Assembly (NCBI GenBank): GCA_049999805.1
Contig: JBNGIO010005744.1
Location: 32,804 to 81,790 of the forward strand
Length of the DNA stretch: 48,987 nucleotides
DNA from: Folioceros fuciformis
Lineage: Eukaryota
Direction: 5' to 3'
The notes beneath the pieces were generated by a model that was not told the origin of the DNA, searched no databases, and was given only the letters and a program-made list of their open reading frames with translations. Made by a program: the position numbers and the translations under genes. Below are positions 1,420 through 48,987 of this stretch, piece after piece (within the stretch, counting starts at the first letter, position 1; every line of letters begins with the position of its first letter).

Positions 1420-1757
1420 ATGCAAGGGAACGGCTGTGGTGTCGCCGGTAGATGAGCTCTGAGCTGACGCGGTGCTGGTGTAATAGGAGGAGTTAGGATC
1501 GCCCTTCGTCCTTTTTCTGGCTCGGACGTGCTGCTCGACTCACGGTTGATGGCAGTGCTGGAAAGACGGAGGACGGAGTGGGTGGGGGCTTTGCAGACCC
1601 TGTAATGAGTGCCATCCTGGGCTCGGCGCTAGAAGAAGTTTCTTGGGGCCTCTCCTTCTGCTGCTTCTTCGACGCCGCCTGCGGCCCTGTCCTCCTTGAA
1701 GAGGAGAGTTGCCTGGGCACAAAGCCACAGGCGTGTGAAATCGAGGGAAGCTGGTGA
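1420..1757 (+). promoter_or_regulatory. Four candidate uORFs in the presumed GRAS 5' leader, arranged as two start/stop-overlapping pairs
   Basis: 1420-1455 (11 aa) overlaps 1452-1496 (14 aa) via ATGA. 1549-1605 (18 aa) overlaps 1605-1757 (50 aa) via TAATG. All lie after a pyrimidine-rich TGCAG acceptor candidate at 1382. Confidence 0.45.
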
Positions 1758-1759
1758 AC

Positions 1760-3796
1760 ATGAGTGTGCAGTACCGGCCGGAGCTTGGAAGCATTAGCCT
1801 TATGCCCTGTTTTCCCTCGGACTCCATTTTCAACTCGGTGCGCCCATCGTCTTTCGCCGACTCTGGTGATAGTCACCAAGGCTCTTCTAGTGGAGGGCAG
1901 TCCAACTTTGGGGTTATGAAGTTTAGAACTCAGGGCTCACCTATATCTCCGCTTTCTCCTCAAGAATTATCCGAGATCTCCGATGCTGTGTGCCCAGGCA
2001 GATATAGCTCGCCATCTCTTGCTAGCAATATGTCAGGAAGAAGAGATCACAGGTACCTACAGGTGCCTTTCCTGCACCATGGTGATGTTGGGTACCATGG
2101 GAGCACGTCTGTTAACGGGGAAATGTCTGCGTACAGCACACCAGTCCACAGTTCCATGACGGTGGATAGTCATGTGGCGTATGGTAATCAGAGTCCCAGC
2201 CCCTACGGTACAATGCAGCTGGCTCAGGAGCACGCGAATCAGCGCTCTGCAAGCGTGGCGCAGATGTTGCAGAAGCTTGAGAGTGCATTGCTTGATGATG
2301 ATGACACTGGCTTCTCAGGTTCCATCTGTGAGGGTCAGGGATCTATTGTAGACCACACCCTTGCCTTCGACATCGACGAGATTCTCTACAGGGACTCCCC
2401 TCCTTCTCAGACCAACGTGGATGTTCCCGATGGCGGCTTTCTGTACAGGGGCTCTCCTCCTTCTGAGAACAATGTGGAAGCCTCTGATGGCAGCAGTGGA
2501 GGTGTAGTGCAGTATGCGCAGGAGCAGACCCCCCGCCCGGTTTCCAACAGCAATGTGGCAGCCACCACTCCTTCCAGCTCCGATGTCAGGCAGGCAGTTG
2601 CAGAGGACAATACAGCCGGTGTGGCTAAATCTCATGCTATGGGGGAGCTGCTGCCAAGCAAGGCTTTCTTCGGAAGAAACAAGCTGGAAGAACTGCTGGT
2701 GCAATGTGCTGAGGCTGTCTCTAACCATGATCTGGACGTGGCTCAGGACTTGATGAGCCAGCTCCATCAATCCGTCTCCATATATGGGGACCCCACGCAG
2801 CGGCTGGCAGCCTACATGATGGAAGGTCTGGTAGCTCGGTTGGCATCTTCGGGGAGGCGGTTCTACCACATTCTCAAGTGCAAAGAACCGCCCAGCTTGG
2901 ACATGCTCTCTGCCATGCAGATCATGTACGAAGTCTGCCCGTACTTCAAGTTTGGCTACATGGCAGCCAATGGGGCTATAGCGGAAGCTTTCAAGGATGA
3001 GAAGAAGGTGCATATCATAGACTTCCAGATCACCCAGGGAGTGCAGTGGTACACCCTCATCCAAGCTCTTGCGGGTAGGCCAGGGGGCCCTCCCCATGTT
3101 CGTCTCACTGGGGTGGATGATCCTCAGAGTCAGTACTCATCTGGCGCTCTTGAGAAGTTGGGGGAAAAGCTGGGCAGGCTTGCGAAGCTTGTTGGGGTTC
3201 CTTTCGAGTTCCATCCCATCGCAAAGCAGGTCCAAGACGTGCAGGCTTGGATGCTGGATCTAAGAGAAGGTGAGGCAATAGCCTGCAATTTTACCCTGGA
3301 GCTGCACCATGTGCCCGACGAGAGTGTGTGCACCACGAATCCTCGTGATAGGCTGCTGCGGATGGTGAAGAGCTTGAACCCCAAGGTGGTCACTGTGGTG
3401 GAGCAGGAACTCAACACCAACACTGCTCCTTTCTTCCCTCGCTTTCTCGAAGCTCTGAGCTACTACACAGCCATTTTCGAGTCCTTGGATGTGACCCTTC
3501 CTCGAGAAAGTAAAGATCGGGTCAGTGTGGAACAGCAATGCCTTGCCCGGGACATCGTAAATGTCATAGCCTGTGAAGGCTCTGAGCGGATAGAAAGACA
3601 CGAGGTGATCTGGAAATGGAGAGCAAGAATGACCATGGCAGGTTTCAAGCCTTACCCTTTGAGCTCCTATGTAAATAGTAACATTAAATCCTTGCTGGAG
3701 TCTTACTGTGACAAGTATCGATTGAAAGAAGAAGGTGGAGCTCTGTACTTGGGATGGTTGAACCGTGCCCTGATAACTGCTTCTGCCTGGCATTAG
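1760..3796 (+). CDS. GRAS transcription factor, PAT1/SCL1 subfamily, intronless CDS
   Basis: LHRI (LEELLVQCAEAVS), EVCPYFKFGYMAANGAIAEA, VHIIDFQI, PFYRE-like PFFPRFLEALSYY, C-terminal ASAWH. First ATG at 1760. Confidence 0.95.
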   Translation: MSVQYRPELGSISLMPCFPSDSIFNSVRPSSFADSGDSHQGSSSGGQSNFGVMKFRTQGSPISPLSPQELSEISDAVCPGRYSSPSLASNMSGRRDHRYLQVPFLHHGDVGYHGSTSVNGEMSAYSTPVHSSMTVDSHVAYGNQSPSPYGTMQLAQEHANQRSASVAQMLQKLESALLDDDDTGFSGSICEGQGSIVDHTLAFDIDEILYRDSPPSQTNVDVPDGGFLYRGSPPSENNVEASDGSSGGVVQYAQEQTPRPVSNSNVAATTPSSSDVRQAVAEDNTAGVAKSHAMGELLPSKAFFGRNKLEELLVQCAEAVSNHDLDVAQDLMSQLHQSVSIYGDPTQRLAAYMMEGLVARLASSGRRFYHILKCKEPPSLDMLSAMQIMYEVCPYFKFGYMAANGAIAEAFKDEKKVHIIDFQITQGVQWYTLIQALAGRPGGPPHVRLTGVDDPQSQYSSGALEKLGEKLGRLAKLVGVPFEFHPIAKQVQDVQAWMLDLREGEAIACNFTLELHHVPDESVCTTNPRDRLLRMVKSLNPKVVTVVEQELNTNTAPFFPRFLEALSYYTAIFESLDVTLPRESKDRVSVEQQCLARDIVNVIACEGSERIERHEVIWKWRARMTMAGFKPYPLSSYVNSNIKSLLESYCDKYRLKEEGGALYLGWLNRALITASAWH

Positions 3797-9219: not shown

Positions 9220-9541
9220 GTAGATCTTTTTCAGTTTGTGATGAAGACCCGATCGGTATGCTTATTGGTTGTCGGTAACTAATTGTTGTATCATATTCGA
9301 GCAGTTTCATTTTTGTGCAATCACTTCGGAAAGGATCCAGCGTCGATCGTCCGTTCATTCGTTCAGACGTGACGAAACGAAAGTCTGTCCGCGAGAGACC
9401 ACGAAGTCTACATTTGCGATTCAAACAAGAAAAACGAAATGATTTGTTATCACTTGACCAAATAACATGTGGCCATTCCTAGTTTAATGTTCCCACACAT
9501 CTGCCAAAATTTCATCCAGCAACTGGAACTCCCTGCACCAA

Positions 9542-10415
<874 letters not shown>

Positions 10416-10522
10416 CTTGTCTTGGGCCTGCCAGGGACGCGAAGCCGCTGGAGATCTGGGGATGCACCGCACTACGCAGCTAAGAGCAGCAGAAAAGGAA
10501 TTCGACATATAGAGAGACGGCG

Positions 10523-10544
10523 TATATATAAGGAGAAACCCTAA
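10523..10544 (-). promoter_or_regulatory. RPS18-A promoter: TATA-like element and telo-box
   Basis: AAACCCTAA at 10536-10544 and TATATA at ~10523-10530. Telo-boxes are typical of plant ribosomal protein promoters. Confidence 0.65.
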
Positions 10545-11080
10545 CGGAGAGCAGCTGGCCCGTTAAGGGATAACCAACTTACACCCTCCTAATTCTGATT
10601 TAATAGGAGTGCCCCTCTAGCTGCCCATTATGTTCGAATTAGTTTTTTCTCTACTTTGAGGGTCCTTATAAGATTTCGTACATATTTTAAAAATCAGTTA
10701 AGTAAATAAGTAAATTTTAAATCGTACACATTTAAAAAATCAGCTAAATAAATAAGTAAATTTCAAATTGAATTTATTTATCATTATGCTTTTGCTATAT
10801 CGATTCGCCTAACTATATTTATTACCATCATAGGGCTTTGTGGGATTTTCTATCTTTTTTGGTAGATAATCGATCGTATTTTGTCTACACAGTGATTTTT
10901 CTTTTCTTAATCTTCTTTTTTTTAAACCTACATTTGATCGTATATAAGAAATCGGGATGCCATGAGAAGTTGCCGATGCTATGCCCTTTTCCACGCAATA
11001 AAAAAAAAAAAGCCTTCCTTTTACTTTGAGAAAAGGACTCACCCAAAGTCTATCTCCTTCTATAAATTCTACCGGATAAT

Positions 11081-12850
11081 GAACTATATGTGTGCTGCTC
11101 CGCGGCGTAAGCAAAGATCAGCTCTACCCTGAACAAAAAACAAAGTGATCTAAATGTAAGAGTCAGCAGCGATATTTTCATCAATCCGTTTTTTGGATCT
11201 GCGGTTTACTCTGCACTGGTGTATATCGAGTCTACTTTGAAATGGTAATAATGGAATTATATTTGCCTGACATTTCCGATTCCTTGTATGTGGGTCCACT
11301 CCTCGTTGCGGTCAGCCTCTCTTTCTATAAATACTACTATCTCAGCTAGTTTTACCAAGGTGTCTTGGCTGTTTGCAAGATGATTCAGGAATTCCCAAAG
11401 GTAAGTTCTATTTGGCGCAGGCAATTAGGGTAGGTGTCTAAACTAAAGGGCGTAGACCGCAAAAGTAGTTTTGCATGTAGCTGTAGGCATATGAAATAAA
11501 TTGGAAGATTAGTCTCTATTAGAGTAAGATTTAGCCCCTTTTCAAGTAGCAGCTTTCATAAAAGGAATAGGATATCTAGTCATTGCGCCTTTTGAGCACG
11601 GCTCTAGCTGGATGTAGTTCTGCCTGGGGTGATCTAAAGAGGTAGGTCATTTTACATGCTTAGGGCAAGCATGAAAGGATAAAGAGCCTAGCCCTCGCTG
11701 CTTTGGCACATCTATCATCTCCCACCAAATCTCAGCGTCCCTTGTATTGTCATGAAGTTGTTTGACAAGGTGCTCAGCCCTTGTGGAAGACTCTTCGCTT
11801 CATTTTCCGAACAGATAAGAAGCACTACAGAATCGTCGACGTAATGGACATAATCCATTTTGCGAAACGATGATCAAGAAAGTCATTGCTCAGTACACTT
11901 AGCGACCAGATCATAGTTGGTTGCATGTTTCCATTAAACCCCCCCTCCACCCACAGCTGCCGTTTGGATTTGATTGGTTAGCCACCTCTAACATGCAGGC
12001 ACGACCTGGCCTTTTGATCCTCCTCTGAAAGGATTGCTTCCTACTTCCAATTCATGGGTCTGTTTTGCATAAGTAAAAGTTAGACTTTAGGGCTTAGTTT
12101 TCGTGGCCTTGGGGTACTTTTAGCTAGGATTACCAAAGCGAAATTAGATTATCTTGCCCTTTGGATTAGACGGATCAAGTGCCGGTCCCTGCATTGCGGC
12201 TACTTGCTAATAAGTTCGATGAGCTTCCGATGGTAGATAGAGTCAAAGCACTTAGTTAGAGATGTTTATGGCCTAATTTGTTGAGTTGCTTTGCTTCTTT
12301 AGCGTTCTAAGGGCATTATGGCCATCTAGGTCAAACGCTAGCAGTCAAGAAAGATTGGTTCATAGATAGCTCGTAATAAAAGTCTCGTTGTCACACTATT
12401 TTGTCTCTGGGATCACATAAATAAGCTCTTTGCTACAACCTTAGGAAGGTGCACCTTACGTCTAGGTTTAAATTGGAGGGATTCAAGTCGACTCATGATA
12501 AGCTGTATGAAATCTAAGGATATCCTGCCGAGGCTGCCTCTTTTGAGGGAGTGAGTCCTATTTTCGTTCGAGGTTGGATTCTATCATCCATATGCCATGA
12601 TTAACCGTTTATCCGATAACAACAATCAATAAAGGTTAGAATGGATTCGGTTCCTGTTATCTTGATTTTCCTCAAACAATTAGTCAAGGTTTTTTGGTTT
12701 AGTGGCCTCAGTTCGAGGGGTGCAATACCCACATGTACTGAGTGCGCGTTGACCACAGAACTCTAGCCCTTTTCGTTGCTGACACAGTTTTATAAGGGCC
12801 TCTTAAACTGGAACCCTTTGATGGGTACTACGGCCATCATTACCTTAGCA
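11081..12850 (-). pseudogene. Decayed group II intron with RT/maturase ORF remnant (organelle-type, probable NUMT)
   Basis: Motifs in the correct order across frameshifts: RLIMAY (12607-12590), LGRISLDFIQ..QFKPRRKVHLPK (12532-12440), PRDKIV (12411), LLRAIYEPIFLDC (12379-12341), LTKCFDSIYHRKLIELISK (~12259-12203), VPQG..LSP..SNFYL (12117-12070), FRKMDYVHYVDD (YVDD 11843-11832). Possible domain V remnant at 11124-11081. Confidence 0.85.
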
Positions 12851-13549
12851 TGACCACTGCTATTCAGAAAGGTATCTAGATTGGGATCCTTAAGGGTCTG
12901 TCCTAACCCATAGCTTCAGTGAGCTACCGAGTGTCGTTCACTTGCATTTCCTAATTGAACGGTGATTTCCAAAAGACTATAAAATATTTTAAGTAGGAAA
13001 AAAATTATTTACGGATTTCCTGGTCACTATAATTCGTCTAGGATTTATTGATGGGCTACCTTGATCTAGTGAGGCCCACCACTTAATCTCTCCCTCTCCG
13101 TTGCCAACAACGAAGGGGAGAGAGACTGATGGTATGTGGCGCCCAGGGGCTGATGCCATGCCTCATGTCTATGAAAACATTGTCGTGCATGAATTAATCC
13201 ACAAGCATGCACACAAAAAGAGTTAGTTATTCAAGAGCAAGGTTCGCTATACATATTCTCTTAGGCACAAGCAGTTGTAACTGCTATGATAAACCTAACT
13301 ACCTAAGGTACAACCCTAAGAGTATAGGCAATGTACTAACAACTAGTATTTACTTGGTTAACAATCTATGAGCACGAGCTCATAACCTGCATGTCAGAAA
13401 TTGTAGAGGTGAAATAATCTTAAAATATGTTTTTATTTGAAATAGAAAGTAAGCATTATTTTTTGTGGGTTCACTAACAATGAACTCGATTAAGAAATAC
13501 CTTCATGTACTCAATTAGGCACTACCTTTATGTTCTAAACACCGAATTA

Positions 13550-13660
13550 TGACTTGCAATGGCAACTAAGATGGATATTGAAGATCTTCCCTAAGATTGG
13601 GAGGTGCAAGAGCCACTAGGTGGCTTGTTCGACACGAAACATCTAAAGTTTTCCACCCAC
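13550..13660 (+). mobile_element. Possible decayed hAT transposase fragment
   Basis: Frameshifted AMATKMDIEDLP..ARATRWLVRHET resembles the hAT TRW motif region. AT-rich, stop-ridden context. Confidence 0.3.
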
Positions 13661-13983
13661 TAGGTATGAGGTCGCTTCTAAGGATTGTGTGTCAGCCATC
13701 TTTAGATTTACTAGTATTTCATGCAACAAGGTGTCTGGCTTGAGGTTAGGAGAAGGCAAGAATGCACAAATCGCCACATACTTTGGGAAGGACATGAATA
13801 AGAAGCAAGTTACCGCTAACAACAACCTTAAAACTAATGTTTGGGCTTATTTGTACGATACGAAATGCTAGTGTGTATTTGGAAAAGCTTATCTTCATGA
13901 TGATAATGCAATAAAGCAGTTTTCAAGCAATGTAAGAAAATAGAGAACTAAGACTTTGAGAGGTTAGAGTATCAAACATGGTT

Positions 13984-14331
13984 GTCAATACCACTTTGGT
14001 ATGAAGTAGCTTGTTATCTGATCAAGGGGTATTTTCTATGATTGAAAAAGAGATAGAAAGTCCCATCTACTCCAAAGATTGGAGGAACAACCCCATTAGG
14101 ACCAAAGGCAAAAGGAGGTACTCTCCCCTACGAATATCATTTTCAAAAACTACCTACTACTCCCAAAATGCCATGATGTGGAATAACAAAAGGCCTACCT
14201 ACCACCTGTGCCGTTATCTAATCAATACCGCTTTGATATGAAGCAACTTGTTATTCGATCAATACCAGTTTGATATGAAGTAGCTTGTTATTTGATCAAT
14301 ACCACTTTGATATGAAGCAGCTTATTATCCA
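13984..14331. repeat. 37-bp repeat: one copy at 13984-14020 and three tandem copies at 14221-14331
   Basis: Unit ATCAATACCACTTTGATATGAAGYARCTTGTTATYYG. The intervening ~200 bp is homologous to 21365-21525. Confidence 0.85.
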
Positions 14332-15176
14332 ACCACAACTTGCAGTTGTACTTTGTGAGATGATGGTGCGGCTCCATAAGCTACAAGAACTGAGAAGACA
14401 CCTACACACCACACTACAAGTGTGGGTGTAAGTCTTCTCGAAGTCTCGCTAGCTGATGTGCAAAACCCCAATTACAATTGTGTAGATAACTATGCTTAAC
14501 ACAATTTATTGTGCGTAGAGACATGAAGTAGCTGAAAGCATTCGAAATAGCGCTTCGGAGAAATGCATGTTGCATGGAAGAGAAGACACGGAATGTAGCA
14601 AAACGTGGTAGGCACAAGTAATGTGGATGACCAAGCTAAAGTAGTCTAGTACCAGGTTTTAGAAGCGATGGGGAAGCCTGGTGCATAGAACTCCTATGGT
14701 AAGTGAAGACCCTAAGTGCCGCAAAGGCCTCTACGCATATCATTCTATTTCATATACACTAATTTTATTCTATCATCAATCATGATTGGATCATACTATG
14801 TTTTGAATCAACTAATGGGAAGGAACACTTGTCACTTCGGCTAATTTACTGGCCACATTATTGCTTCTCTTGTCAACGCTGTCATCCTGTATATGGCATT
14901 AGTCAACGCTCGTTGTAGAGCAATGGAAACCATGTGCTGCAAAAAGTAGAGCAATATAAACCCTCTGTTGAAAAAACGGTACAATATACAAAAGAGGAAG
15001 ACCAAGCCCATTTTTCCGGTTATAAACCACCTTGACCCAAAACGTCAAAAACTTGAAAAATGCGTTGCACATGGCCCGGAGGGCTCAATGGTAAAAGGTG
15101 CGTCCAGCCTGTAGAGGGGTGTACTTGTGAACCTTGGCCGATGCACTCCCCTCCGTCGCCCAACACGGGGATTTGA

Positions 15177-15429
15177 GGACAACATGTTCATAGACTGAAA
15201 CTCGGGACAACATGCTCATAGACCGCAACTCGTGTAGGATCAATTATGACCCGATTAGCAATAAAAACTTTTTGGTCTTCCCAGATGAGGAAGCAAGGGC
15301 TTCTTCTTCGTAAGGATCTGCACTAAGCTTTCGAAAGGAAGGTAATAGGCAAAGCCGACATCATAGAATCCTTTGCACTAAGCTTTCGAAAGGAAGGTAA
15401 TAAGCAAAGCCGACAGTCATAGAATCCTT
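15177..15429. repeat. Two local tandem duplications (~27 bp x2 at 15177-15231; 55 bp x2 at 15319-15429)
   Basis: GGACAACATGYTCATAGAC.. occurs twice; TGCACTAAGCTTTCGAAAGGAAGGTAATARGCAAAGCCGACA.. occurs twice. Confidence 0.85.
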
Positions 15430-15846
15430 GGCAAACGGCAGTCTTGGAGGGTGCGCCTCATACAAGGCGAGGAGGTGCATAACCGGAAGGGTTCCTCATA
15501 CTCTAAATTCCTCATTCATGAGCACTTCTGGCAGTCGTGGAACCCGACCTTCCCTCTCGACCCCTCGGGTGGGGATTTATTAAGACGTTCGAGGCGAGCT
15601 CGATTCCGATTCGTCGGATATTCATTTGTAGAGGGAGCCGGCGTCGATCAACTAAAATTTCAACTCGAGACAGCAAACGAGGGCTTGCCCTACGTCCACA
15701 CGACTCAGCCTTCCATTGCAGTTTATTCAAGAGTATGAAACAACGGATTAGCTATCCCATGTTCAAATAACATGAGGCCGTTCCTAGTTAATTGTTCCCA
15801 CAAATCTGCCAAAATTTCATCCAGCAAGTGGAATCCCCTACACCCT

Positions 15847-16698
<852 letters not shown>

Positions 16699-16935
16699 CT
16701 TGTCTTGTTGCTGCCACGAACTCGGAGCCGCTGCAGATTTGAGAACGCACCGGGCACCGTAGCTAGAAGCAGCATAAATTGTAGCTGAAAGAAGCCTAAA
16801 TATATACGAGACAACCCTACCGGCGAGGGACTTGCTCTTCTGGGATAACCAAGGTATGCCAAAAGGGGGGGAAATATTAGCTTCACACCTAAAGACATAT
16901 TTAGCAGTACCGACGACTTTTTTCTCGATCTTCTA

Positions 16936-21224: not shown

Positions 21225-21463
21225 CCGTATAATCGACGGATTTGGCAGCTACTCACATGTAGCAACCTAAGATGAAATGTAGCACACATGGGAAGCAGAA
21301 AGCATGTAGACACACATACTTGAACTTGTAATCTTAATCTACATCTATAGAATTATTTTCCATTATTGAAAAAGAAATGGTCCTATCTACTCCAAAGATT
21401 GGAGGAACACCCTGAGCATGGCCAAAGTCAAAAAAGGTACTAGTCTCTTTTGAACATCATTCT

Positions 21464-21803
21464 CAAAAATTACTTACTACTCCTAAAGTGTCATGATGTG
21501 GAATGATAAGAGGCCTACCTATTGGTACCAAAAATTACTTACTACTCCTAAAGTGTCATGATGTGGAATGATAAGAAGCCTACCTATTGGTACCAAAAAT
21601 TACTTACTACTCCTAAAGTGTCATGATGTGGAATGATAAGAGGCCTAAGAAGCCTACCTATTGGTACCAAAAATTACTTACTACTCCTAAAGTGTCATGA
21701 TGTGGAATGATAAGAAGCCTACCTATTGGTACCAAAAATTACTTACTACTCCTAAAGTGTCATGATGTGGAATGATAAGAGGCCTACCTATTGGTACCAA
21801 AAA
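21464..21803. repeat. 65-bp tandem repeat, five nearly identical copies
   Basis: Units start at 21464, 21529, 21594 (74 bp), 21668 and 21733. Confidence 0.95.
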
Positions 21804-22945: not shown

Positions 22946-25900
22946 TCAGGGTGATGCTGTCTCCCTCATTTCGTATAGTCGATCCAAAACAGCACCATAG
23001 ACAGCTTGGTTTGGTGACCTGTCATTGGACCTGAGCTCGTCCAGGAGCTTGCAAGCATCCCCTACACGCCTCGACTTCATCAAGGCATCCAAAATTATGT
23101 TGTATGTGATGACGTTAGGAGCTACACCCTGGAGTTTCATGTCTGTAAACAATCGACATGCTTCGTCGATTTCACCTGCTTTGCTCAAACAGTCCACTAA
23201 AGCACTGTATGTGACAACGTTCAGATTCACCTCGTTGTCCTTCATCTCGGCAACAATATCCCGAATTGCATCAATCCGATTTGCTTTACCCAGGCTGTCC
23301 ACAAGACTGCTGTATGTCACGACGTTGGGAACAAGTCCTTGGGTCTTCAGCTCCTCAAATGCCACATATGCACTATCCACTAGACCTGCCTTTCCCAGTC
23401 CGTCGATGAGTGTGCTGTAGCTTACCACGTTGAGTTGCAGCCCCCTGCTCTTCATCTGTTCCCACAGATTCAGTGCCTGCAGAATAGCCCCTTCTTTCAC
23501 AAGCCGGTCGAGGACCACAGTATATGTGACTACATTCGGGGCGATCCCACTTTCAACCATTTCCTTGAGCAACCGACAGGCCTCGAGGACATCACCTGCC
23601 TTCACAAGACCATCGACAGCAGCTGTATAGGTGACCACGTTTGGCGGTGTCCCAGTTTTCTTGAGATCTTCAAGCAGCCTTTTCGCATCGACAATGGAAC
23701 CTGCCTTGATGCTGGCAGCTATGAGGGCTGTGTATGGCACAACATCTGGAGTCAACCCTTTTTCAGACATTTCATCGAAAACCTTGTTAGCTTCCTCCAG
23801 TTTCCCATTCCTTCCAAGCCCATCAATGAGGCAGCTGTAGGTGTGCACGTCAGGAACCAGCCCTTCCTCTTGCATCTCTGTGAAAAGCTTGCAAGCTTCA
23901 CCAGTTTGGCCCACCTTACCCAAGCCATTCATCAGCGCGTTGTACGTGGCTACGGAAGGTGCAACGTTCTGTTCTTTCATTTGGTTGAACAGCTTCCAGG
24001 ATTCACCCATCTGACCCGCACGCCATAGGCCATCAATCATGCTGGTGTACGTATGGGCATCGGCGGTGATGCCTTCTTTTTGCATCTCGTCCAGAAACCT
24101 GACCGCCAGATCCATTTGGCCAGCTTTGCTCAGTGCTTCTACCAGACATGCGTACATTGTTCGGGTTGGTTTAACACCTAAATCACACATTTCTACAAAA
24201 ACCTTGCATGCTTCATCAATCCGCCCGATCTTCCCGAAATTATCAATGAGGCTGGTGAAAGTCTGTACGTCGGGGACCAGCCCATTTTCTTTCATTTCAC
24301 AGAACATCAGGTATGCATCATGTGTTCGACCAGCTTTTCCCAGTCCATCGATCACAGCATTGTAAGTGACAGCGGACGGAGATATCCGTTGCCCCTTCAT
24401 CTCCTCCAAAACCTTCAGTGACTCATCCACCTTACCTACTCGTCTGAAGCCATCAATCAAAGTTGTATAGGTAAAGGCATCTGGCACAAAGCCACTGGCT
24501 TTTAGATCCTGGAAGAGCTTACACGCCTCGTCTACCCGACCTGCCTTTCCCAATCCATCCATGAGGGAGACATAGGTCACCAGATTGGGTTCATTTGGGG
24601 TGCCCCTCATACCTTCGAACAACCGGCATGCTTCATCTACTCTACCAGCTTTGCCAAGAACGTTGATGAGCGTGTTGTACGTAATGACTGAGGGCGAAAT
24701 CGCAGAGACTTGCATCTCCTTGAACAGCTGGGTGGCCTGATCCACCTGGCCAGCCTTTCCGTACCCATTGATGAGGCAACTATACGTCACCACATTGGGA
24801 CTCACCCCTTTCGCCTTCATGCTCTCAAACATCTTCAAAGCCTCGCTCATACGACCCATCTTGCACAACCCATGCATGAGACTAGAGTACGTCCTGACGG
24901 AGGGGCAATATCCATCTCCCTCCATGTCTTCAAACAGCTTCAGAGCTCTATCAACCTCACCAGCTTTGCCAAACCCATCTATCAAGATATTATACATGAC
25001 TAAATTAAATGCCATCCCTTCCTCTCTCATCTCTTCTGCAAGCTTGAAGCTCTCATCAAACTTGCCAGCTTTGACATACCCATTCACCAGTGAACCATAA
25101 GTCCGAATATCTGGCTTCAAACCCCTCTCCTTCATCTCCTCAAACAAGCTGCGAGCCACATTTGCCTTCCCAAGCTTAAACTGACTGTATATCAGCCGAT
25201 TGTACGTAGGCACGTCCAGTTCACACCTCGTCTCCACTGCTTCCAGATAGAACTTGTACGCACTGGGGTAGTCACCAGCCTTCACAAGCGCAGTGATGAG
25301 AGAATTATACGTCAACGAACGCGGCTGACACCCATAGCTCTTCATCTGCTGGAAGATTCTGACAGCTTGAGCTGGAGCACCAGCCTTGCTGTAAGCTGCA
25401 ATCACACACACGAAAGCCTCACTCAGCTCACATCCCTCCAATCTCATCATCTCCAGCACCCTGTGCACGGCGGCAAACCTGAGAGCATCGCCTAACTTTT
25501 TCAGCATACACAAGTACACAGGGCTCTTGTGCCTGTAGCCCTGTTGCGTCCCTGCCCACAAAAAGAACTCCAGAGCCAAGTCTACATCCGCCATGCCCTT
25601 CAAAACTGCCATCACCAGAGCTGCCTCGGCCCTGAATCCCAGCTGCTCCAGCACTGCCTCGGTCTTGACACTCCATTGCAACTGACCCAGTATATCCAGA
25701 ATGCACTGCACCTCCATGTCCATCACTGTAGTAATCTCCACAGGCGGGCCAGATTGCACCCTCACTGGCCTCCCCCTCTGCTCCCGCAGCCTGATGGTAA
25801 TGCCCAACAGCCTCCCCCTCTGCTCCCGCAGCCTGCGCGCTTGAATCTCCTTCCTCCTCAACAGCAACCGCCCGAATCTCAACCGAACCTTCACCTCCAC

Positions 25901-25978
25901 CCCAGCTCTGCCCTTGCCAGGCCCTCCGAATCCAGCAGCCACAACGGGAGACTTGACAGGAAACAGCCTGAGCGCCAT
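22946..25978 (-). CDS. P-class pentatricopeptide repeat protein (~1010 aa, >20 repeats), probable organelle targeting
   Basis: Tandem 35-aa motifs (e.g. VTYSCLINGYGKAGQVDQATQLFKEMQVSAISPSV). Arg-rich N-terminus; no E/DYW tail. First ATG at 25978. Confidence 0.95.
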   Translation of the reverse strand: MALRLFPVKSPVVAAGFGGPGKGRAGVEVKVRLRFGRLLLRRKEIQARRLREQRGRLLGITIRLREQRGRPVRVQSGPPVEITTVMDMEVQCILDILGQLQWSVKTEAVLEQLGFRAEAALVMAVLKGMADVDLALEFFLWAGTQQGYRHKSPVYLCMLKKLGDALRFAAVHRVLEMMRLEGCELSEAFVCVIAAYSKAGAPAQAVRIFQQMKSYGCQPRSLTYNSLITALVKAGDYPSAYKFYLEAVETRCELDVPTYNRLIYSQFKLGKANVARSLFEEMKERGLKPDIRTYGSLVNGYVKAGKFDESFKLAEEMREEGMAFNLVMYNILIDGFGKAGEVDRALKLFEDMEGDGYCPSVRTYSSLMHGLCKMGRMSEALKMFESMKAKGVSPNVVTYSCLINGYGKAGQVDQATQLFKEMQVSAISPSVITYNTLINVLGKAGRVDEACRLFEGMRGTPNEPNLVTYVSLMDGLGKAGRVDEACKLFQDLKASGFVPDAFTYTTLIDGFRRVGKVDESLKVLEEMKGQRISPSAVTYNAVIDGLGKAGRTHDAYLMFCEMKENGLVPDVQTFTSLIDNFGKIGRIDEACKVFVEMCDLGVKPTRTMYACLVEALSKAGQMDLAVRFLDEMQKEGITADAHTYTSMIDGLWRAGQMGESWKLFNQMKEQNVAPSVATYNALMNGLGKVGQTGEACKLFTEMQEEGLVPDVHTYSCLIDGLGRNGKLEEANKVFDEMSEKGLTPDVVPYTALIAASIKAGSIVDAKRLLEDLKKTGTPPNVVTYTAAVDGLVKAGDVLEACRLLKEMVESGIAPNVVTYTVVLDRLVKEGAILQALNLWEQMKSRGLQLNVVSYSTLIDGLGKAGLVDSAYVAFEELKTQGLVPNVVTYSSLVDSLGKANRIDAIRDIVAEMKDNEVNLNVVTYSALVDCLSKAGEIDEACRLFTDMKLQGVAPNVITYNIILDALMKSRRVGDACKLLDELRSNDRSPNQAVYGAVLDRLYEMRETASP

Positions 25979-26482
25979 CCCCACCAGCTCCTGCTGATGG
26001 GCTGCTTCCAGAAAAGCAGAATCGCCCGCCTACCACGGGCTACTCAGGGATGCACACATTCATACATCCCGATTCAGACAAATCCAGACTCCACATATCT
26101 ACCGCCAAAACCGATTCAAGGGACATGGCGGCTTGGGACAGGAAAGTCCTTTCCGTAGCCTGCGGCTGACCCGTGGCTATGACACCGGTTACTTAACCAC
26201 ACAAAGTGTCAATCTCTTCGGACCGGCGAGGCAGCCAGGTGGTGTTAACGAGCGCATACCAACGGCGTGCACCGCATTGCAAGTCCCCGCCCGGCGCTAG
26301 GGGGAATCGGCGCTCGCGGCACGGTACTAGGGGCCTGCTGCCCGATGTTGAATCCGAGGACTCGACGACGGATCGCAAGGGAGAGATGGGCATTTGCAGA
26401 ATGAGGTGGCTGAGGCAGTCGGGCCGAATGCTCACCAAAAATCAGACAGAGACCTCATGATTGAAGGAAGCTGACATTTCTT

Positions 26483-42392: not shown

Positions 42393-45105
42393 CTACAGGG
42401 CAGCTAGGGACTGCATGACATCATTGTAGATGTCGTCGTAGTCCTCAATTCCACAACTGAATCTTACCAAGTTGTCTTTGATACCCAGCATGGCCCTCTC
42501 CGATGGGCTTTGATCCCTGCACCACAGCAGCAAAGAGAGAGTTTGAGTGACGGAAAGCAGAGCTTGAGTCAGGAAGAAGGATGTGGAGCAGGTGGCAGGC
42601 AGGCATACCAGTAAGAGCCGATTGCAGACTGCTCAACGAGAGACTCACATCCGCCGAAGGATGGAGCAATGTAAGGAATGCGAAGGCCGTCGATGAATTT
42701 CGAGGTAAATTCTAGGTCTCCATTCAGCTGCATCAGTGAAGTGAGGAGGAAGTGGGCAAGGCATGATAATGTGTGTTACCAGCCCCTGCGTTTCTTCAAT
42801 TGCAGGAAGTGTTTCAACCTTACCTCAAAACTTACGACCCCACCAAATCCAGACATCTGGCGTTTGGCGATGTGGTGCTCTGGATGACTTTCCAGGCCAG
42901 GATAATGTACACGGAGAACCTGAACAGTGAAGGAAGGAGGGAATCAGGGACAAGGTATGGAGACATGCTTATACTGAGGAGAGCACGGGAGGAGCAAAGA
43001 TGACACCTTGGCGTGGGCTTCCAAAGCGTGGGCGAGCTTCATGGCAGTTTGGTTTTGCTGCTTGACACGCAGATCTAGCGTTTTCATGCCTCGGATGGTG
43101 AGGTAGGAAACATGCTGGGTGGGATGTAGACCAAGGAAATTAGACTTATGAACATGCGTCAAAGACTTATAACAAAGAGGAAGAAAAACATTTGTGACAT
43201 ACAGGATCGACAACACCACCCAGCATGTTGTGCAAGTTTCGCACATTGTGCACAAGTTTCTTCGACCCGCTAATACTCCCAGCCAGCACCTGCAGATAGA
43301 TGTGAGATGATGCGGGCCTTGAGCTGAAATTGATGAATTAGTAACAAGTTCAAGCCTGCTCAAAAAGGACTCACCAGTCACTCATCAGGGTGAGAGAACT
43401 TACGTCGTGATGACCAGCTAAGTATTTGGTTGCAGAGTGCAGGACAAGGTCTGCTCCAAGGGCAAGAGCCTTCTGGTTCACAGCTGTTGCAAAAGTGCCA
43501 TCAATGCAGACTAATGCACCCTTGCTGTGGCAGATCTCCGAGATGAGAGGAATATCAATACACCGCATAAGAGGATTTGTTGGGGACTCCGAAAAGAACA
43601 GAGACACCTACGTCACGACGGAATACCTTCGTTAAGTGAAGACACATTGTGTACATGATAACCATGTAAGGACTTCAATGGCAAATCTACCAAACACACA
43701 TGGTATCCCTCCAACACAGTCTTCAGAGACTGAATATCAGCGGGGTCAATGACAGTGACCTGCAGCAGGAAGGTCAGGAGTGTAAGAAACGATATCAGCA
43801 AGACCCATCCGAAAAAGCAAGATTCAGAAACTTACAATGACATGCCTTAATCCCCATCTTGGGAAGAACTGTATGAATGAATTGTCGGGTTTTCATGTAG
43901 CAATCTGTGGTGGTGACAATATGTCCGCCCGCAGGAACAAGGGCCAACAGCATAGTTGTTGCAGCACACATACCAGATGATGACAGCAAGGTTGTCTCAG
44001 CCCCTTCAAGAGCACTGGACCCAACAAAAGGTGAAATTTCAACAGATCTGTACCTCCTCGTTGAATGCAGCAAGAAATCTGCAAGAAAAGTGTGAGTGGA
44101 CAAGGCAAGGGGGTGCCACACCTGATCTTCTCCTCGGCTGCATGAGTTGTGGGATTGCCATTTCGTCCGTATTCAAAGCTCGCGTAAGTCCCATTCTGTC
44201 CCCAGACAGAGGGAACAAATGACCACAAGGATCTGAGTATAACCTGCAAACCTGCAGGATAGCTGCACACCCAGTACTGTGCAAGCAAACAACAGACCTG
44301 GAAGGCAATCAGCTCGGCAGTGTTCCTGAATCTGTAAGTGGATGTCTGCACAATCGGTGTTGTGAGAGAATCGGACACATTAGGTCGTTCTTCTCGTTCA
44401 CCTTCAAATCACAAAGGCACGAAGAAAGCTGAGACAAATCTTTGGTAGATCAAATAGTCCCAAAAACTTCGAGCAATCCTAAACAAGCAAAGCAACCACA
44501 GTCACACACTCACATCACCATGGACAGCCATCTAACAACTCCATCTCCCTACTATGGTGAACACGTCTTACAGACTTCCTTGCCACCAGAGTCTGCAAGA
44601 AAAGTCACACAATTGCCTCTAGACCATGAATTGCCACCTGTAAAACGGACGGTTTACTCCACAGCCTGAACTCCTGAGCTGCACACTTACACGTACCGAC
44701 AAGGGACGCAAGAAAAAACAAGTTATGCCAAGACCCACAGGAGCATCCAGCAAGAACACAAGGACTGGAATGAACCCTTCACTCATCCCTACAGGCATCA
44801 GCACAACGTGCTTGTTGGGCGGTACAGATCTAAAAACTAAATCAAGATGAAGCAAATCATCAAGCCCAGCCCAGCCCAGCCAACGCATCCAACCTATTCC
44901 AAATCCCGACCGAGCCTAAGGAGAGGAAGGCACAGCCAAGAATTCCAGCACAGAAACGACCCACCAGACCCAGAGCAGACGACAGACCTCCATGAACAGC
45001 TATGGTGCCCAACTTGGGCCTGCTACTAGCATCAGGCCCCATGACTTTGGCCTCCGGCAAATCCAGTGCCGCCATCTTCGCCACACCAATGCTGCTCCCC
45101 ACCAT
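42393..45105 (-). CDS. Cystathionine gamma-synthase-like PLP enzyme, copy A (11 exons, ~420 aa, short N-terminus)
   Basis: [78 protein letters not shown]. Exon 1 is 45105-44988. Confidence 0.9.
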
Positions 45106-46668: not shown

Positions 46669-48696
46669 CTACAGGGCAGCGAGAGACTGCATCACATCCT
46701 TGTAAATGTCGTCGTAATGCTCAATTCCACAGCTGAAACGTACCAAGTTGTCTTTTATTCCCAACTTGGCCCTGTCTGCCTCGGATTGATCCCTGCCACA
46801 TACCAACACCACTCTGTTCACAAATTTGGCCTAATGAACCAAGAGACCAAAGCAGACTTGAGGAGGAACGACATGCCTCTCACGCACTCTTACCAGTACG
46901 AGATTATTGTAGGCTGCTCTACGAGAGACTCACATCCTCCGAGGGAAGGAGCAATGTACGGAATTCGAAGGCCATCAATGAATCTTGAAGTATCTTTCAG
47001 GTCTCCCTTTAGCTGCATGAGTGAAGGAGAAGAGAAGGGCGTGGTCAGAGGCTTGACTGCTAGCATCACCTGTCCCTGAGGTTCTTCCACTGCCGGGTGC
47101 ACGAAAAATCTTACCTCAAAACTTACAACACCACCGAAGCCAGCCATCTGGTGCTTGGCGATGTGGTGCTCTGGATGACTTTCCAGGCCGGGATAATGTA
47201 CACGAAGGACCTGGAACGATGAAGAAACCCAAGATAAGCCATCAGGACATGCACACCTGGAGGGGTACCATCACTGGGGAAGGAAGGAGTAGAGATGATG
47301 AAACCTTGGGGTGGGTCTCCAAGGCATGGGCAAGCTTCATCGCAGTTTGATTCTGCTTCTCGACACGCACATGAAGTGTTTTCATACCTCTGAGAATAAG
47401 GTAGGCAGCATGCTGCACACGCAGGCCACCAGAGGAAGTCAGGCTCTGAAATTATTCAAGACGAAGAGCAGTGAGCCAAGAGGGGTGAAACATACAGGGT
47501 CAACGACACCGCCCAGCATGTTGTGCAAGTTTCGCACTTCCTTGACAAGTTTCTTCGACCCGCTGATACTCCCAGCCAGTACCTGCACATAGCACACATG
47601 AGCTCATGCAGGCACTGACCAGGGAATGATGAAAAGCTGCACATTAGGAACCATCACGACATACATCGTTGTGACCAGCCAAGTATTTGGTTGCGGAATG
47701 CAGAACAAGGTCTGCCCCAAGGGAAAGAGCCTTCTGATTGACTGGCGTTGCAAAGGTGGCATCAATGCAGACTAAAGCACCCTTGCTATGACAGAGCTCA
47801 GAAACAAGAGGGATGTCAATACACCGCAGGTACGGATTTGTTGGTGACTCTGAAAAGAATAGAGACACCTACATAGCAACAGAATACCTCCGTTAAGTGC
47901 AGTGAAATTTGTAGATGAAATCCACGTCAAGCCCTCCTATTCCAAATACACCAAACGCACCTGATCTCCCTCCAAGGCCGTCTTCAAGGAATTCAGGCCA
48001 ACCGGGGAATTCAGGCCAGCTGGGTCAAGAACAGTGACCTACAGCAGCAGGGGACAAATGTCAAAATTCCATCTCAAACAAGCACATCCAGAAAGGTGAC
48101 ACAAACACGAAAAAATTGGTACACAGAAAACGACGTGCCTTAATTCCCATCTTGGGAAGAAACGTCTGGATAAATTGCCGAGTTCTCCTGTAGCAATCTG
48201 TGGTGGTAACAATGCGCCCACCGACAGGAACAAGCGCCAGCAGCATGGTTGTTGCAGCGCACATACCAGATGCTAACAGCAACGTTGTCTCAGCCCCTTC
48301 GAGAGCACTGGACCCAACATAGAATACATATTTCGATACATCAAGAAACTCCCGATCCAATGCAGCAAAACAAGGAACTGAGATCGAGGTGGACATGGAA
48401 AAGAGGTGGCATACGTGATCTTCTCTTCAGCTGTATGAGTTGTGGGATTGCCGTATCGTCCATACTCAAAGCTCTGGTGCATTCCATCCTGTCTCCAAAA
48501 CAACATGAAAACAATCACCACAACCTCTCTAGTACAGCCCTGAAATGTGCAAAGGACCTGTATAATCACGACTGCGCAAGTAGACAACAAACCTGAAAAG
48601 CAATGAGCTCCTCAGTGTTTCTGAATGTGTAAGTGGACGTCTGTACAATCGGTGTTGTGAGAGAGTCCGACACTTTAGGTCGCCCTTCTCTTTCAC
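46669..48696 (-). CDS. CGS: Cystathionine gamma-synthase, copy B (5'-partial; exon 1 outside window)
   Basis: [82 protein letters not shown]. Same intron positions as copy A. Confidence 0.9.
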
Positions 48697-48987
48697 CTTC
48701 GAATCACAACAGAAAACGAGAGAGGAACTGCTGTCAGACAAAGCATCACGGCCACCCATCCGACGACCCGGTCTATGAACTATGATCGACCATTGTTTCA
48801 GACTTTCTCGCCGGAAGTCTCACAACAACACCGCTGAATCACCACTAAAGAATGGAAACCCACTCGTGACACTGAGAAATTCTACATGCCCACTCCACAT
48901 CCCAAATTCCCATTCCACACCCAAATCCTGCACCCAAAGAAAGTGGTGACACAGGAACAGGGGGGGGGAGGGGGGGGGGGCGCAGGA

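Follow-up and report, generated by a model that had tools for sequence, protein, structure and literature searches.

Degenerate reverse transcriptase (RT) motifs in plant nuclear DNA may mark a fossil intron, a dead maturase gene, a retrotransposon or a fragment of organellar DNA, and the question raised by the locus described here is which of these it is. The original prediction, made from sequence alone, was a hidden fossil group II intron that had arrived either as an old insertion of mitochondrial DNA (NUMT) or by retro-insertion, and that possibly preserved an intron since lost from the mitochondrial genome. The reading preferred here, at a probability of roughly 0.88, is that ~11,003-12,977 is a NUMT derived from the plant's own mitochondrial DNA, with a maturase that was already broken and with two pieces joined past RT5. 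Positions are those of the window, the whole 48,987-nt stretch of DNA that was analyzed, and the features discussed are collected in Table 1.

Table 1 Position, strand and basis of the features in and around the insert. Names of sequencing runs are as in the text.
Feature	Position	Strand	Basis or remark
RPS18 copy 1 (duplicated block)	9,441-10,495	minus	uS13/S18-like exons
High summed depth across three runs	10,734-11,001		A/T-rich, borders 13-nt A run
Piece B, includes candidate domain V	11,003-11,770	minus	X4 contig 17; X1 depth 9,300-15,000 to ~11,003
Internal join of pieces A and B, ~25 codons past YVDD	11,737-11,770		Loose ends at 11,736 (X1, X4) and 11,754 (X4, X10)
Piece A, putative group II intron interior: ~190 nt upstream of the frame plus RT0-RT5	11,754-12,977	minus	X4 contig 18; X1 contigs
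Degenerate RT/maturase reading frame	11,799-12,646	minus	Frameshift-aware alignments, profile HMM, tblastn
RT0	12,646-12,590	minus	Frameshift-aware alignment
RT1	12,502-12,394	minus	Frameshift-aware alignment
RT2/2a	12,391-12,264	minus	Frameshift-aware alignment
RT3	12,265-12,203	minus	Frameshift-aware alignment
RT4	12,118-12,070	minus	Frameshift-aware alignment
RT5	11,867-11,799	minus	YVHYVDD at 11,850-11,830 (YADD-type catalytic box)
RPS18 copy 2	15,746-16,778	minus	uS13/S18-like exons; pairs with copy 1

Genomic setting of the remnant

The window belongs to the nuclear genome of a land plant, and its genes include a GRAS gene with one exon, a large PPR gene and ribosomal protein genes with introns. 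Both the nuclear setting claimed for the RT remnant and its position amid two RPS18 copies were correct. The two copies are 85% identical across 1,059 nt, and the maturase-bearing insert lies in the spacer between them, upstream of copy 1 and outside the duplicated block. Among named relatives, the GRAS protein comes nearest to those of mosses (Ceratodon, Sphagnum) and of a lycophyte (Diphasiastrum), with 49-72% identity, and its top relative overall is a transcriptome protein, 72% identical across the full length. The plant is accordingly regarded as a land plant outside the seed plants.

Reverse transcriptase motifs and protein similarity

A long open reading frame was sought in the stretch and none was found, as had been predicted; no continuous reading frame is present. 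Every predicted RT0-RT5 peptide was recovered from the minus strand; the peptides are distributed among its three frames and follow the expected order. RLIMAY, QFKPRRKVHLPK, LRAIYEPIFLDC and KCFDSIYHRKL are read in the first frame, PRDKIV and VPQG..SNFYL in the second and DYVHYVDD in the third, giving RT motifs 0 to 5 in order together with a YADD-type catalytic box.

Frameshift-aware alignment of RT0-RT5 to reference maturases showed 31-37% identity. Scores were 198-219 for five references and reached 242 among all 175 references, far above the 35-52 obtained with shuffled proteins. A tblastn search with 120 maturases returned 116 HSPs at E ≤ 0.01, all of them at this locus (bins 11,500-12,499; best E 4e-13), and a profile HMM built from 120 mitochondrial-type maturases matched at 12,787-12,155 (i-E 4.2e-20) and at 11,915-11,772 (i-E 1.1e-3). 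Pfam searches of 14 stop-to-stop pieces gave just one chance DUF match (E 0.07), and Pfam searches of all three minus-strand frames, with stops replaced by X, gave no family, a weak blank given that the method missed the RT itself.

Relatives of the remnant

A word-indexed search with the best frame yielded one significant protein (P0001, E 5.7e-7) out of 108 candidates, with RVT_1, Intron_maturas2 and AI2M-like HNH domains. This protein and 119 listed relatives formed the set of 120 reference maturases. RVT_1 and Intron_maturas2 were found in all 120 proteins listed, many of them fusions with exon domains of cob, cox2, cox3, nad or atp6, and the named members among the listed relatives are from mitochondria of fungi, red algae and a sponge.

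An exhaustive phmmer search of the same frame against 1.84 billion representatives retrieved 47 proteins at E ≤ 1e-3, with a best E of 2.4e-8 and 27-36% identity; no protein among these representatives reached 1e-10 or better. Twenty of the 47 matches were scanned for domains. RVT_1 was present in 19 of the 20, Intron_maturas2 in 11 of the 11 that were at least 577 aa long, HNH in four, and cytochrome b or COX1 exon pieces in two. The names of the ten best representatives were generic ("group II intron reverse transcriptase/maturase"), with one cyanobacterial MAG and Vibrio/Idiomarina among them, and do not resolve the plant intron family. A scan of metagenomes with a degenerate 48-letter probe gave no matches, and a related-locus search of metagenomes with the read-through frame gave 58 loci, all at 22-37% identity, with no mitochondrial counterpart. 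Judged by these protein relatives and their mitochondrial exon fusions, the predicted identity of the remnant as a group II intron reverse transcriptase/maturase of mitochondrial lineage is supported.

A high-copy counterpart in sequencing reads

In a word index of public sequencing runs, two DNA runs of organism A contained 0.37-0.38 of the words, and many runs of other organisms 0.06-0.08. Four runs were compared with the window over 10,600-14,600 at 85% likeness: X1 and X4 from organism A, and X10 and X6 from two other organisms. X4 carries the same organism label as X1, and its RNA nature is a guess.

Single X1 contigs inside 11,451-12,961 had depths of 5,216, 6,656, 6,825 and 7,085, and differed from the window at 16 of 293 (94.5% identity), 17 of 209 (91.9%), 18 of 277 (93.5%) and 12 of 165 positions (92.7%), respectively. 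The flanking X1 contigs, at depths of 7.25, 9.83, 13.8 and 16.6, showed no differences from the window. Two of these span the insert ends (10,600-11,063 at depth 7.25 and 12,941-13,299 at depth 9.83), and the junctions are thus covered by reads of nuclear depth with no differences, X1 being possibly the assembly's own sample and in that case not independent. The same organism therefore holds a high-copy sequence that matches the insert at 92-94.5%, as a single sequence variant at ~400-700 times nuclear depth, with flanks at depth 7-17. Contigs of X4 matched as well: contig 18 (2,829 nt) matched 11,754-12,977 with 82 other letters and two gaps, and contig 17 (2,290 nt) matched 11,305-11,736 with 26 other letters and one gap.

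Both X10 and X6 covered 10,734-13,011 at very high depth and at least 85% likeness. Past 13,011 there was no cover in X6 and low depth in three bins in X10 (13,146-13,413 and 13,682-13,815), with 13,414-13,681 and 13,816-14,600 covered by neither run; these gaps, like those in X4, are not taken as absence. The X10 and X6 contigs are short (75-89 nt) and heterogeneous, and could represent several intron paralogues.

The depth of the high-copy replicon, its conservation across species, its gene content and its mutation spectrum point to the mitochondrion. A plastid source would also fit the depth ratio of ~400-700; land-plant plastids are not known to carry an RT0-RT5 maturase.

Direction and age of the transfer

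The window and X1 differed at 146 places. The window carried A for a read G 54 times and T for a read C 34 times, and the reverse changes were seen nine times each, such that G>A and C>T changes into the window copy made up 88 of 106 transitions (p 3e-12). Context was evaluated at 40 listed places, a subset picked by the software, and 28 of these were C>T-type changes (8 in CG, 13 in CHG and 7 in CHH). CG and CHG contexts accordingly held 21 of the 28 listed changes, compared with 31% of the cytosines (p 2.4e-6), the cytosine background of the stretch being 14.6% CG, 16.6% CHG and 68.8% CHH. The nuclear copy therefore displays C>T/G>A decay at methylatable sites. In PMC7037861, the decay of plant NUMTs and NUPTs is described as a C>T/G>A bias and ascribed to methylation and deamination. 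The window copy is read as the derived, nuclear one because the direction and context of the changes fit NUMT decay.

The window copy has diverged from its high-copy counterpart by ~6-7%, at odds with the "old" NUMT that had been proposed. The transfer was probably comparatively recent; one-sided divergence of this size would correspond, as an order of magnitude only, to millions of years if the rates usually given for plant nuclear DNA are applied. These rates are not calibrated for this lineage, and methylation speeds up the decay.

Architecture of the insert

Homology between the insert and its counterpart is interrupted at one internal point. Contig 17 diverged from the window for 1,853 nt past 11,736 and contig 18 for 1,568 nt past 11,754, and the loose ends in X1 and X10 agreed with those in X4 at 11,736/11,754. 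Judged by eye, the contig matching piece B remained similar to the window to ~11,770, and the overlap of pieces A and B is a short imperfect match, TTG..TGACA. According to PMC7037861, mosaic NUMTs joined at microhomology are the norm and later deletion is also usual. Over 30 nt read by hand in the RT5 frame, the continuation of the piece-A contig is roughly like the L-x-L-S-x-x-K/R-T that follows RT5, a weak likeness from one loose end.

The upper end of the insert, at 12,977, was marked by loose ends in X1 and X4, with contig 18 continuing for 37 unlike nt, and the lower end, at ~11,003, by a loose end in X1. No protein family, RNA family or maturase tail was detectable in piece B by Pfam, Rfam, tail alignment or fold. 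The adjoining stretch at 10,734-11,001, which is covered exactly by an X1 contig of nuclear depth (7.25), could represent either a third piece of organellar DNA or an artefact of low complexity.

Breakage of the maturase frame

Alignment of six references over 11,754-12,977 required 15-20 frame changes in the window at the default penalty. At a raised penalty, 6-11 frame changes remained with five of the six references and three with the sixth, for which just 176 residues were aligned. In-path stops in the maturase alignment numbered 2-10, and at least five frame changes recurred across three penalty settings, near 12,341, 12,264, 12,089, 12,020 and 11,873.

The high-copy version does not support a reading of these frameshifts as nuclear decay. 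Over 1,224 nt, the alignment of contig 18 with the window has two gaps of 1 nt each, +G at 12,015 and -1 at 12,028. Since just two 1-nt gaps separate the window from its source, nearly all of the frame breaks were already in the organellar copy, and the maturase must already have been broken in the mitochondrion before transfer. According to PMC10012718, plant mitogenomes commonly carry intron-borne maturases that have degenerated.

The explanation originally preferred was an ancient NUMT that keeps an intron lost from the mitogenome and whose frameshifts arose by long nuclear decay. Such an origin would account for the 15-20 frame changes that the heavily broken frame requires at the default penalty and for protein identity of ~30-37% at most to known maturases. 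It is nevertheless highly improbable, as the high-copy sequence in the same organism has its breakage in common with the window. The claim of loss from the mitogenome fails on the match at organelle-like depth in that organism and on the sequences of at least 85% likeness in the two others; the organellar copy still exists, so the insert is not the relic of a lost intron.

The runs of the other organisms differ from those of organism A at two of the frame-affecting positions. Compared with X1 and X4, X10 and X6 have 4 nt fewer at 12,252 and an additional C at 12,390. The high-copy sequence of organism A and the NUMT thus have in common two frame-breaking indels, 4 extra nt at 12,252 and a missing nt at 12,390, that are absent from most of the X10 and X6 depth. 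In silico removal of both indels raised the maturase score by 12-22 with six of six references, and the other frame changes stayed. This gives a weak hint that the relatives' maturase is somewhat less broken. If the relatives keep a working or less broken maturase, the NUMT would show that the maturase of this lineage was lost at least ~6-7% of nuclear divergence ago, a minimum age, and would capture the state of the intron at that time. That the NUMT and the reads together date the death of the intron maturase in this lineage is a tentative proposal and, on balance, a doubtful one.

Searches for ribozyme parts and a maturase tail

Rfam searches found no group II family, D1-D4 included, over 9,500-15,000 at E ≤ 1, and nothing of group II type over 10,600-11,700 at E ≤ 10. 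The group IIA domain III-like hairpin that had been proposed upstream of the frame accordingly has no Rfam D1-D4 match. The domain V proposed at 11,124-11,081 was likewise not borne out: Rfam was silent there, and the segment folded at -10.4 kcal/mol (z 0.02; 94 of 200 shuffles as good) into a helix other than the one proposed. Neither a group II domain V/VI nor domains I-IV with defined 5' and 3' ends were found.

The RT6/7, X and En tails of 40 references, aligned to 10,300-11,790, scored like shuffled tails (z -1.5 to 3.0), and the sole z of 3.0 came from low-complexity sequence rich in lysine; downstream of RT5, neither RT6/7 nor maturase domain X nor the optional En was thus detected. Extensions past RT5 with single references were mutually inconsistent. 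A resemblance of FISYAYSYMQNY to a ..NYYSF..N motif at 11,500-11,465 was dropped, as tail matches were not above chance and the references disagreed. Pfam searches of nine frames of 10,400-15,600 gave no family and no flanking mitochondrial exon, a weak result given that the same approach missed the RT. The prediction of a whole hidden intron is not upheld, with ribozyme parts undetectable and homology to the source stopping at 12,977 and ~11,003, inside the intron.

These results bear on nuclear retro-insertion of a group II intron, in which reverse-spliced or reverse-transcribed RNA would leave an element with precise intron ends. The element is indeed intron-derived, and an A13 run at 10,999-11,011 adjoins its lower end; on the sense strand it reads as T. 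Homology ends at 12,977, where the source contig goes on with unlike letters, just ~190 nt before RT0 and with no GUGYG-like 5' start. The undetectable domains V/VI and D1-D4 also speak against this origin, as does the composition of the element from two joined pieces; the internal join has the appearance of a deletion or of the mosaic structure known from NUMTs. Retro-insertion is accordingly given only a very slight chance. Between the two routes offered by the original prediction, the NUMT was the right one, as indicated by the high-copy counterpart, the nuclear-depth junctions and the C>T/G>A bias.

Nuclear maturase genes and retrotransposons as sources

A pseudogene of an nMAT-type nuclear maturase, formed by duplication of a nuclear gene that had once moved from the mitochondrion, would belong to the same protein family (RVT_1 and Intron_maturas2) and would explain the nuclear location; nuclear maturase genes of mitochondrial origin are present in land plants, as PMC10012718 reports. 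A nuclear gene would be expected at a depth of 7-17, whereas the counterpart is a single variant at ~400-700 times nuclear depth that is found in other organisms too. The source copy moreover has the same frameshifts and so is not a working gene. With a broken frame and a high-copy counterpart in place of an intact, single-copy nuclear gene, this origin is very improbable. A LINE or LTR retrotransposon remnant, suggested by generic RT motifs alone, can be given practically no weight, because the remnant's significant relatives are all group II intron maturases rather than retrotransposon enzymes, with Intron_maturas2 in every full-length match scanned.

Proposed history of the insert

Under the preferred reading as a NUMT, piece A would be an internal part of a group II intron of the mitochondrion, carrying RT0-RT5 of the intron's maturase gene, which would have been riddled with frameshifts there prior to transfer. 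Piece A may have been joined to piece B through ligation of fragments during insertion, or an internal deletion may have brought the two together afterwards, and either route would leave RT6/7, X and En absent from the nuclear copy. After insertion, the copy would have accumulated ~6-7% substitutions, mainly G>A/C>T at CG and CHG sites, through cytosine methylation and deamination. The insert is presumably without function, having neither ribozyme nor protein activity.

Comparison with known systems

The insert is an ordinary NUMT, the product of a common kind of event. Once labeled as such, the stretch should not be confused with a group II intron of the nucleus, with a gene of the nMAT type or with a retrotransposon. 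Mapping of organellar reads and assembly of this plant's mitogenome should also take the insert into account. It would provide at best a dated snapshot of a mitochondrial intron with an already decayed maturase, and it has little import beyond annotation.

In domain architecture, the best relatives of the insert are of the yeast aI1/aI2 type (RVT_1, Intron_maturas2 and AI2M-like HNH), some of them as fusions with exons of cob, cox1, cox3 or nad. The order and wording of RT0-RT5 in the aI1/aI2-type proteins are as observed here, whereas the insert is without an intact frame, RT6/7, X and En, and shares ~31-37% identity. The nMAT1-4 proteins of land plants resemble the insert in protein family and nuclear location; they are intact, expressed and single-copy, in contrast to the insert, which is a broken copy of a sequence still present in a high-copy replicon.

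Closer parallels are found in plant mitochondria and in other transfers from them. The degenerate maturase frames atp9i87g2, cox1i150g2 and nad1i669g2, as presented in PMC10012718, have recognizable RT motifs in a broken organellar frame, as here; the window differs from them in holding a nuclear copy of the RT0-RT5 part only. Plant NUMTs, as described in PMC7037861, are like the insert in being organelle-derived, in having single-copy nuclear flanks, in their C>T/G>A bias at CG and CHG sites and in the joining of several organellar pieces at a short match, and they are likewise taken as non-functional. Between these and the insert there is no difference in kind; the insert differs in containing intron rather than exon sequence and in that its source was seen through read depth.

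Indels in the maturase remnant and neighboring repeats

Two indels in the maturase remnant, the degenerate group II intron reading frame carried within the organellar insert, distinguish organism A from most of the depth observed in two other organism labels. At both positions, the state found in organism A is the same in the organellar copy and in the nuclear copy. Coordinates of these and the other features are collected in the table below.

Features of the window
Feature	Positions	Details
Indels	12,252; 12,390	each at a frame change of the maturase remnant
A/T-rich stretch	10,734-11,001	adjoins an A13 run
Short tandem repeats	13,976-14,335; 21,354-21,803	units of ~37 and ~65 nt; family common to both sites
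RPS18 (uS13) tandem duplication	9,441-10,495; 15,746-16,778	copies 85% identical over 1,059 nt
Direct repeats	15,319-15,415	2 x 42 nt, 98% identical, 55 nt apart
Second tandem duplication	42,393-44,414; 46,669-48,709	72% identity over about 2.1 kb
GRAS (PAT1/SCL-like) ORF	1,739-3,796	single exon
PPR ORF	22,946-26,029	1,027 codons

The short tandem-repeat family displayed high summed depth in X1, a public DNA run of organism A, and this depth was distributed over many contigs, each at depth 10-23, with back-and-forth joints. No depth was detected for the family in X10 or X6, runs of two other organism labels. The family looks like a lineage-specific nuclear repeat. Summed depth over the A/T-rich stretch was high in three runs from three organism labels, which could reflect either a third piece of organellar origin or a low-complexity artefact.

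Duplications and genes in the window

The duplicated RPS18 block is separated from the organellar insert by a gap of about 240-500 nt. The pair of direct repeats lies just downstream of RPS18 copy 2. Exons are included in the second tandem duplication, and their translations suggest a putative PLP-dependent enzyme of Cys/Met metabolism. The closest named relatives of the GRAS protein are from mosses and a lycophyte.
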